From the IMG/VR virus record IMGVR_UViG_3300045988_110279: 64,000 nt of DNA. The stretch is one strand, 5' to 3'. This document shows positions 63,478 through 64,000 of the stretch, piece by piece. The DNA comes from a virus. Under the pieces are notes generated by a model. That model was not told where the DNA came from and ran no database searches. It worked only from the letters and a program-made list of their open reading frames with translations. How positions within the stretch are numbered: the first letter of the stretch is position 1; every line of letters begins with the position of its first letter. Made by a program: the position numbers and the translations under genes.

Positions 63478-63532
63478 CCGAATTGCCAAAATTTTGGGCA
63501 ATTTTTGTTATATAAAATTGCCAATTTTTTAT
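63478..63532. promoter_or_regulatory. two imperfect palindromes AATTGCCAAAATTTTGGGCAATT and AAAATTGCCAATTTT upstream of the recombinase gene (hix/res-like)
   Basis: A-tract and T-tract flank the centre, as in hix/gix sites. Both lie directly 5' of the serine recombinase gene. Confidence 0.45.
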
Positions 63533-63552
63533 ATATCTATGAGGTGATAAAG

Positions 63553-64000
63553 GTGTTATACGGATATGCACGAGTTAGTTCACGTGACCAAAATATTGAC
63601 CGCCAAATTCTTGCTTTAACTGAAGCTGGGGTTAAAGAAGAAAATATCTTCATAGATAAACAGTCGGGCAAAGATTTTAATAGACCATCTTATTAGAAAA
63701 TGATGGATACTGTGACTTCAGGAGATATGATTCTCCTGAAGTCCATTGACAGATTAGGGCGTAATTATTCTGAAATTCTTGAACAATGGAGTTTAATAAC
63801 AAAGACAAAAAATGTAGATATAAAAGTTTTGGATATGCCATTATTGGATACGTCATATTGCAAAGATATTATGGGTACTTTTATATCAGATCTAGTCTTA
63901 CAAATCTTATCTTTCTAGGCTGAACAGGAAAGAACATATATTAAATAGAGATAGGCAGAAGGAATAGCCGCAGCTAAATAGAAAGGAATAAAATTTGGTA
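63553..64000 (+). CDS. small serine recombinase (resolvase/invertase family), 3' end truncated by the window
   Basis: GTG start after GGTGA gives [18 protein letters not shown]... and later ...AEGIAAAK(Q)KGIKFG. The track frames 63505.. and 63700.. become continuous when TAG is sense. Confidence 0.75.

Follow-up and report, generated by a model that had tools for sequence, protein, structure and literature searches.

A recoded recombinase gene between a tail-fibre cassette and a holin gene

We analysed a stretch of viral DNA 64,000 nucleotides long (IMG/VR virus record IMGVR_UViG_3300045988_110279; hereafter, the window), at the right end of which lies the first part of a recombinase gene. 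The content of the window includes portal, virion proteins and tail fibres, and the phage belongs to a clade of ~100–150-kb, TAG-recoded human-gut phages whose hosts are probably Bacillota. The gene starts with GTG at position 63553, and its frame is open to 63999, the window end (Table 1). The initial annotation had described it as a small serine recombinase running past position 64000. Phage contigs that are 96–98% identical to the window extend it to a full length of 207 amino acids, with a stop codon at ~64176 by comparison with L003 (L numbers denote related contigs and lineages throughout). Among its relatives (37 IMG/VR contigs of up to 148 kb), the length is 199–207 amino acids. The string containing the Shine-Dalgarno sequence, ATGAGGTGATAAAGGTG, is invariant in nearly all lineages and reads GTAGAGGTGAAAAAGGTG in L010.

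With TAG read as glutamine, the predicted protein matches the Pfam family Resolvase (PF00239; 4e-31, 108.5 bits against a cut-off of 23.3) over profile positions 2–143 of 145, as well as PHROG 125, a family labelled “DNA invertase” (1.4e-45). Among solved structures, Sin (2r0q) is the best match (1.7e-32, 115 bits, residues 1–147), followed by Tn3/gamma-delta resolvase (77 bits) and Gin (55 bits). Ser9 aligns with the Ser9 nucleophile of Sin, and the motif SIDRLGRNY is identical in both proteins. The catalytic residues are intact: Y5, S9, R67, and R70 are invariant, and R7 is found in 35 of the 37 relatives. The change R7C occurs in L007 and L008, both of which have no TAG in the recombinase gene. 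Purifying selection on the gene is strong, with a ratio of nonsynonymous to synonymous substitution rates (dN/dS) of 0.015–0.07 and synonymous sites near saturation. Judging from these sequence comparisons, the recombinase looks like an enzyme kept for catalysis and not like a relic.

The closest annotated relatives are recombinases of Bacillota plasmids, such as pAW63 of Bacillus thuringiensis (NC_020240.1) and pELP1.24a_3 of Priestia megaterium, with 47–50% identity across residues 3–203, including the C-terminal DNA-binding part. The size range and the alignment through residue 203 fit a small serine recombinase with a short C-terminal DNA-binding domain. PF00239 is the only family that Pfam reports in the 207-residue protein, which excludes a large serine integrase (>400 amino acids, with recombinase and zinc-ribbon domains). 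No NCBIfam equivalog model reaches its cut-off, the XisF and Ccr models scoring far below theirs, and no homologue of more than 60% identity was found in cultured phages. By these matches, we assign the gene to the small serine recombinases of the resolvase/invertase family, nearer to Sin and the Bacillota plasmid resolvases than to Gin/Hin, in agreement with the initial annotation as to the family. If the resolvase reading given below is correct, the recombinase is a further phage-borne member of a well-known enzyme family, and its recoding and its conserved position beside a hyper-variable receptor-binding locus are its only unusual aspects.

Table 1 Features of the recombinase locus and of the neighbouring retroelement, in window coordinates.
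Feature	Position	Strand	Basis or remark
Recombinase gene, first 149 of 207 codons	63553–64000	+	Open reading frame, Pfam, Sin match, 96–98% identical contigs
Shine-Dalgarno sequence GAGGTGA	63541–63547	+	5 nt ahead of the GTG start
In-frame TAG, codon 48	63694–63696	+	Read as Gln
In-frame TAG, codon 122	63916–63918	+	Read as Gln
In-frame TAG, codon 132	63946–63948	+	Read as Gln
In-frame TAG, codon 134	63952–63954	+	Read as Gln
In-frame TAG, codon 143	63979–63981	+	Read as Gln
Palindrome 1, AATTGCCAAAA T TTTGGGCAATT	63481–63503		Boxes 1 and 2
Palindrome 2, TATATAAAATTG C CAATTTTTTATA	63509–63533		Centre is box 3
Box 1, TTGCCAA	63483–63489	none	Self-symmetric TTG-S-CAA
Box 2, TTGGGCAA	63494–63501	none	12 bp after box 1
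Box 3, TTGCCAA	63518–63524	none	23 bp after box 2
26-bp dyad, GGCAATTTTTGT TA TATAAAATTGCC	63497–63522	none	Spans boxes 2 and 3; candidate operator or crossover site
−10-like element, TATATATC	63530–63537	+	In conserved tail TTTTTTATATATCTATGAGG, common to the downstream module
Tail-fibre cassette, three small open reading frames	62122–63438 (also delimited as 62130–63434)	+	Weak PHROG match; lineage-variable; not shown as substrate
Retroelement reverse transcriptase, YMDD	57813–59031	−	
Retroelement Avd-like open reading frame	59471–59965	−	Named by position and appearance; no Pfam match
Retroelement template repeat	59338–59440		
Retroelement variable repeat	60061–60163		3′ end of a 598-residue target with Big_3 and DUF6273 domains

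Reading of TAG as glutamine

Under the standard code, translation of the recombinase would end after 47 residues. At each of the five in-frame TAG positions, however, CAA or CAG takes the place of TAG in at least one relative (L001, L006, L007, L010), and Sin carries glutamine at two of the five aligned positions. The glutamine placed in parentheses by the initial annotation in the segment AEGIAAAK(Q)KGIKFG is likewise borne out by glutamine codons in relatives. With TAG treated as a sense codon, open reading frames (ORFs) of at least 100 amino acids add up to 82.3 kb instead of 35.6 kb, and the longest ORF grows to 2914 amino acids, compared with 465 otherwise. Owing to this gain, to the glutamines in Sin, and to the CAA/CAG codons in relatives, we assign the phage, from its sequence, to genetic code 15 (TAG as glutamine). 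TAG is a sense codon across the phage region at 18160–64000 and in scattered ORFs within 1–18000; a 2908-residue ORF at 34710–43436 holds 101 TAGs, and a 1304-residue ORF holds 26. A tRNA scan finds no tRNA, and thus no suppressor, in the 64-kb window, and an Rfam scan of the same sequence found no family.

Few genes in the neighbourhood are as rich in TAG as the recombinase gene. In most lineages it contains four to seven TAGs, amounting to 3–3.5% of codons, compared with 0.5–1.2% in the neighbouring long ORFs; the genes of L007, L008, and L010 are without any TAG. In recoded gut phages, whose hosts presumably use the standard code, structural and lysis genes likewise contain TAG as an amino-acid codon, whereas integrases avoid in-frame stops, and recoding was proposed to delay the production of late proteins (Borges et al., 10.1101/2021.08.26.457843). 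By this logic, the contrast between the TAG-rich gene and the stop-free integrases of recoded prophages argues against the recombinase being an enzyme that establishes lysogeny. Some replication genes use TAG too, such as a RuvC-like gene with nine TAGs in L003, and for this reason the proposition that expression of the recombinase needs suppression is firmer than the proposition that it is late. A TAG-rich site-specific recombinase is a mildly informative contrast to those reported integrases. The gene is missed by standard-code gene callers, which split it into fragments, and in this respect the value of the finding lies mainly in annotation.

Conserved boxes on both flanks of the recombinase–holin unit

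The initial annotation had pointed to two imperfect palindromes directly upstream of the gene. Both are indeed present and are conserved across diverged lineages, in part with changes in both arms. When the upstream regions of 28 distinct relatives were aligned, the palindromes resolved into three TTGSCAA boxes lying between A and T tracts and followed by the conserved tail TTTTTTATATATCTATGAGGTGATAAAGGTG. The three boxes and the −10-like tail form a module of ~65 bp at the front of the gene, and the boxes are kept across lineages that are only 75% identical in DNA. In L010, palindrome 1 is perfect over 23 bp (AATTCCCAAAATTTTTGGGAATT), both arms being altered to TTCCCAA...TTGGGAA. The 26-bp dyad spanning boxes 2 and 3 reads GGCAAAGTTGTT AA ATCAACTTTGCC in clade B of the relatives, again with both arms altered, and each of 25 contigs, with lengths of up to 148 kb, has exactly one copy of this clade-B form, always just upstream of the gene. 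Upstream of distant homologues with 47–56% identity (L078, L189–L192), the TTGSCAA boxes are absent, and these homologues gave no help in defining a family-wide site.

On the plus strand of this module, we found no acceptable −35/−10 pair for sigma-70. Two other promoter types were rejected by inspection: a sigma-54 promoter (−24/−12) fails at the GC of the −12 element, and the spacing is wrong for a Bacteroidetes −33/−7 promoter, with the strong Shine-Dalgarno sites also arguing for Bacillota. A regulator-dependent promoter would be compatible with the geometry, a dyad followed after ~40 bp by a −10-like element.

A second copy of the module was read from related contigs beyond base 64000. 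We term the module upstream of the recombinase site A and this downstream copy site B. Site B lies ~1.18 kb downstream in direct orientation, after the recombinase gene, the holin gene (PHROG 13712, 2.9e-33), and a strong terminator, and before the next operon. It is composed of two boxes 12 bp apart, a third element, and then TTTTATATAATAATGAAAGG. The 65-bp modules A and B align in direct orientation only; their two-box parts match in the inverted orientation as well, being palindromic. Within the window, the two-box pattern is limited to site A; in related contigs, with lengths of up to 148 kb, it is found at sites A and B only, and the idea that the boxes are a general late-promoter motif was rejected on account of this restricted occurrence. 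The 26-bp elements of the two sites differ at the central dinucleotide in the window lineage (TA in site A, AA in site B), and in clade B site B is without box 3.

The operon behind site B (L003, 11202–14191) is conserved in both in-group and out-group phages and encodes proteins of unknown function: 141 amino acids; 77 amino acids; a Gly/Cys-rich protein of 301 amino acids with an apparent hydrophobic segment, possibly membrane-spanning; 140 amino acids (PHROG 20016); 204 amino acids; and an M78/ImmA-like peptidase of 108 amino acids. No endolysin was recognised beside the holin in this region of L003. In L201, an out-group phage on a 188-kb contig, a divergent gene with a weak match to the response-regulator receiver domain is placed between the holin gene and the downstream operon (3650–4380). 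The repeats found there are different, being direct copies of TTGTGRA/TTGAGAATG upstream of the same −10-like tail.

The initial annotation had also reported related motif copies near 2015 and 56793, which we attribute to chance. With up to one mismatch, ATTGCCAATTT occurs three times in the window compared with 3.7 expected occurrences. The second motif, ATTGCCAAAA, lies at 34329 and at 56803 (not 56793), and its three occurrences are nominally above the 0.37 expected; the flanks of these copies share nothing. When site A was used as a query (23, 26, or 42 nt) against positions 1–63470, the best match was no better than those of shuffled-query controls. The copies at 2017, 34329, and 56803 were accordingly discarded. 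A separate, perfect palindrome of 13+5+13 nt (TTGGGAAAAGGGT AAGAA ACCCTTTTCCCAA) is found at 61978–62008, in the intergenic region between the divergently oriented retroelement target gene and the first cassette gene, and its outer bases resemble the box variants of L010 and L067.

Genomic context and structural variants

In these phages, the recombinase gene is always found on the strand of the late genes, with the holin gene on one side and, on the other, a hyper-variable tail-fibre cassette that adjoins a diversity-generating retroelement (DGR). Unrelated genes take the place of the cassette in every related lineage, L007 lacks it, and genomes that are otherwise 98% identical differ by a replacement at 62466–63438. 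Its right boundary lies 14–45 bp before box 1 and its left boundary inside the first fibre gene, neither of them at the dyad centre. Ordinary homologous exchange between the conserved flanks accounts for this pattern, and the cassette looks like a receptor-binding hot spot. The position of a strongly conserved gene between a hyper-variable receptor-binding cassette with its DGR and a holin, in widespread gut phages, makes the substrate of the recombinase worth finding.

We observed no sign of DNA inversion at this locus. Within 52000–64000 there are no inverted repeats bounding segments, the only pairs being the template and variable repeats of the DGR, a terminator, and weak chance pairs. In the five lineages examined, all ORFs from the DGR target gene to the recombinase are on the plus strand. 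None of the 37 recombinase contigs has a flipped flank or a flipped recombinase–holin segment, nor do the further holin, 140-residue protein, and motif loci. Overall, the inversions or deletions at the palindromes that the initial annotation envisaged are found in none of ~45 related contigs. The sole structural variant is L037, in which a 2.4-kb deletion (9990–10010) takes out the cassette, site A, and the first 115 recombinase codons; its end points are unrelated to the boxes.

A scan of 185,579 species-representative genomes returned two matches to the recombinase. In the first, L078 (55% identity), 91 bp separate the match from the end of a 41-kb contig of a Christensenella metagenome-assembled genome (MAG). 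The second is on a 147.8-kb contig binned with a Eubacterium MAG, where the surrounding ±6 kb show the same phage upstream module.

A proposed resolvase-type enzyme acting at a single site

We tentatively favour, at a probability of roughly 40%, a resolvase-type enzyme that would be made only under TAG suppression and would act at the single 26-bp dyad in its own control region. In such a scheme, the phage would first switch the cell to TAG suppression, and only then could the recombinase be produced. The enzyme would work at one site per genome copy, the dyad formed by boxes 2 and 3. A dimer would bind the dyad, and Ser9 would cut at the central TA; exchange between the two dyad copies carried by a genome multimer would then give monomers. 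Binding to the dyad would probably also autoregulate the recombinase–holin unit. The Tn3/gamma-delta resolvase, which acts as a repressor at res, offers a shared model for autoregulation through a site that overlaps the enzyme’s own promoter. The differences are that the present gene belongs to a phage and not to a transposon, with no tnpA and no three-subsite res.

Several observations are in line with this scheme. Resolvase genes usually have their recombination site directly upstream, as do the closest plasmid homologues. In P. megaterium, a 26-bp palindrome resembling site I is found directly upstream of the gene, and its layout is that of the phage dyad, with TA at the centre, an A/T tract, and specific bases at the outer ends. 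In pAW63, 13-bp motifs recur upstream of the gene, but a 26-bp palindrome of this kind is lacking. Sin, from Staphylococcus aureus plasmids, is similar not only in its nucleophile and SIDRLGRNY motif but also in length (202–209 amino acids, compared with 207) and in the presumed placement of its site before the gene. Two findings connect the recombinase with the boxes themselves. First, the module is restricted to the two flanks of the recombinase–holin unit. Second, L010, the sole lineage with changed boxes, has a Glu-to-Lys substitution in the putative recognition helix, a helix assigned by eye and a substitution representing a single event.

Other observations weigh against this scheme. Site A has three boxes within 42 bp, each of them self-symmetric. 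The res site of Sin, by comparison, covers 86 bp with a site I, an HU/IHF spacer, and a head-to-tail site II, and the regulatory residues F52 and R54 of Sin (PMC2428073) align with Thr53 and Thr55 of the recombinase. In the plasmid homologues, four to six half-sites of 12–13 bp are spread over ~100–120 bp, and their sequences (GTTCGTAAAAGTA, ACCTTTTGAAGTA) are unrelated to TTGSCAA. Sin also differs in its setting, the present gene being phage-borne, TAG-recoded, and located beside a holin gene. In L010 the recombinase is intact, yet box 3, and with it the dyad, is absent. The dyad folds as a hairpin followed by T’s, with a terminator-like score. The two-box element of site B persists in relatives that have no recombinase at the locus (L067, L070/L206, L203), and since the next operon has the boxes in these phages, they may belong to another regulator. 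These relatives and L201 do possess fibre and holin genes and the downstream operon, and the boxes of their downstream modules are either similar or of a kind of their own. No plasmid-maintenance genes were identified in the annotated parts of the window, and the monomerisation of late concatemers by a resolvase brings no obvious benefit for packaging. The sequence examined covers about half of the phage genome. These observations do not establish the initial description of the palindromes as hix/res-like: the single-copy dyad in front of the gene fits a resolvase, but a full multi-subsite res of the kind seen in the plasmid homologues was not recognised, and the box motif also precedes the next operon in relatives that lack the recombinase. 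The initial suggestion of a resolvase acting on res sites, with resolution of phage-plasmid dimers, is similarly supported by the affinity to Sin and the plasmid resolvases, and not by any phage-plasmid evidence.

Alternative explanations

A possible alternative, toward which we lean less, is that the boxes form a promoter/operator module for the recombinase–holin unit, in part a terminator or attenuator hairpin, that is read by another phage regulator. The recombinase would be active, with a target elsewhere, either on the host chromosome or in the half of the phage genome that lies outside the sequence examined. The next operon is preceded by a module of the same build, with two boxes at a 12-bp spacing that stand ~40 bp ahead of a conserved TTTTCATATAAT-like tail, and this copy is the one retained where the recombinase is absent. 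The L201 locus, with its other repeats and its adjacent divergent gene with a receiver-domain match, points in the same direction. Self-symmetric boxes would be more in keeping with a small dimeric regulator than with the half-sites of a recombinase, and the clade-B hairpin is strong (−22 kcal/mol, z = −8.6). On the other hand, the hairpin of the window lineage is weak (z = −1.6), and related contigs as long as 148 kb contain the module at two places only, one on either side of the recombinase–holin unit. The usual placement of serine resolvase sites directly upstream of the gene also disfavours another reader of the boxes, as does the pairing of the altered L010 boxes with the Glu-to-Lys substitution, again with the limitation that it is a single event.

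It appears improbable that the enzyme is a phage integrase with its attP in site A, or an integron-like exchanger of fibre cassettes. The presence of one dyad per genome, beside the gene, would agree with an attP, and the cassette that differs from lineage to lineage, with its right boundary so close to box 1, would agree with an exchanger. However, a protein of 207 amino acids lacks the additional domains that characterise large serine integrases, and its TAG-laden gene would be untranslatable in a standard-code cell; the integrases of recoded prophages avoid such codons. Integrated copies would also have to be reconciled with only two matches among the species-representative genomes. As for cassette exchange, the boundaries are off the dyad centre, no copy of the site is present at the left boundary, and homologous exchange suffices.

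A related and more speculative idea is that the recombinase binds the TTGSCAA arrays flanking its own unit and that the code switch confines recombination to TAG-suppressed cells. There, the enzyme would promote an integron-like exchange of receptor-binding cassettes between co-infecting genomes, or process replicating genomes before lysis. We consider this a long shot; if true, stop-codon recoding would serve as a timer for DNA rearrangement.

We give very little credence to the fibre-switching invertase of the Gin/Cin/Hin type that the initial annotation had listed, in which a tail-fibre or host-range segment between the palindromes would be flipped. Gin of Mu, Cin of P1, and Hin belong to the same superfamily and are of similar size; like gin and cin, the present gene sits at the edge, here the right one, of a variable fibre cassette. 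The PHROG 125 label seems to favour this idea too, as does a 23/26 inverted match that the two-box part of site A makes with that of site B in the window lineage. Those systems, however, have two inverted 26-bp sites, alternative fibre ends on the opposite strand, and both orientations in populations, none of which was found here. The inverted match is due to the palindromic boxes, as the full modules align in direct orientation only, and in 1–63470 no site-A-like sequence in either orientation rises above the shuffled controls. Segment-bounding inverted repeats, minus-strand cassette ORFs, and flipped contigs are all lacking, the clade-B dyad is single-copy, and the Gin score (55 bits) is below that of Sin (115 bits). 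Nothing indicates that the recombinase inverts tail-fibre segments.

Equally hard to credit is a reading of sites A and B as direct recombination sites from which the enzyme excises a 1.18-kb recombinase–holin circle, be it a mobile cassette or a programmed deletion: the two modules, alike in their three-box layout, do flank exactly these two genes in direct orientation, but the predicted deletion junction occurs in none of the ~45 related contigs, the one deletion variant has unrelated end points, the two sites differ in central dinucleotide or in box 3 (see above), loss of the holin would kill the phage, and site B is older than the recombinase.

Other features of the window

Next to the cassette, the window contains a complete DGR on the minus strand (57813–61843; Table 1). 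The mismatches between its template and variable repeats fall on adenines of the template repeat in 21 of 22 cases, and several related contigs stop at or near the variable repeat, as expected of a hypervariable spot. The reverse transcriptase is found in two ORFs, at 57813–58529 and 58588–59031, whose stop-to-stop frames overlap by ~100 nt; the split may stem from a frameshift or from an assembly error, or the gene may consist of two parts. A GC-rich 16-nt sequence, TGGGTCTGCGGGCGGC, located at 54197–54212 on the plus strand inside a fibre-like ORF of 636 amino acids (53943–55853), is identical, in inverted orientation, to part of the variable repeat (60098–60113). A chance match is unlikely in AT-rich DNA, and the sequence may be a remnant or a second DGR-related target.

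The region at 4000–17000 stands out by a G+C content of 0.39–0.43, compared with ~0.31–0.35 elsewhere, and by a negative GC skew. Its ORFs are short and poorly packed under code 11, code 15, or TGA read-through. Two auxiliary genes on the minus strand were assigned by Pfam: a poly(ADP-ribose) glycohydrolase-like gene of the microbial type (PF10021, 6.6e-26; 15758–16525) and a FolD-like methylene-tetrahydrofolate dehydrogenase/cyclohydrolase (PF02882, 2.9e-38; 17098–17913). Finally, a perfect 25-bp inverted repeat with A/T tracts lies at 56664–56720, where the plus-strand fibre genes meet the minus-strand DGR block, and looks like a bidirectional terminator.

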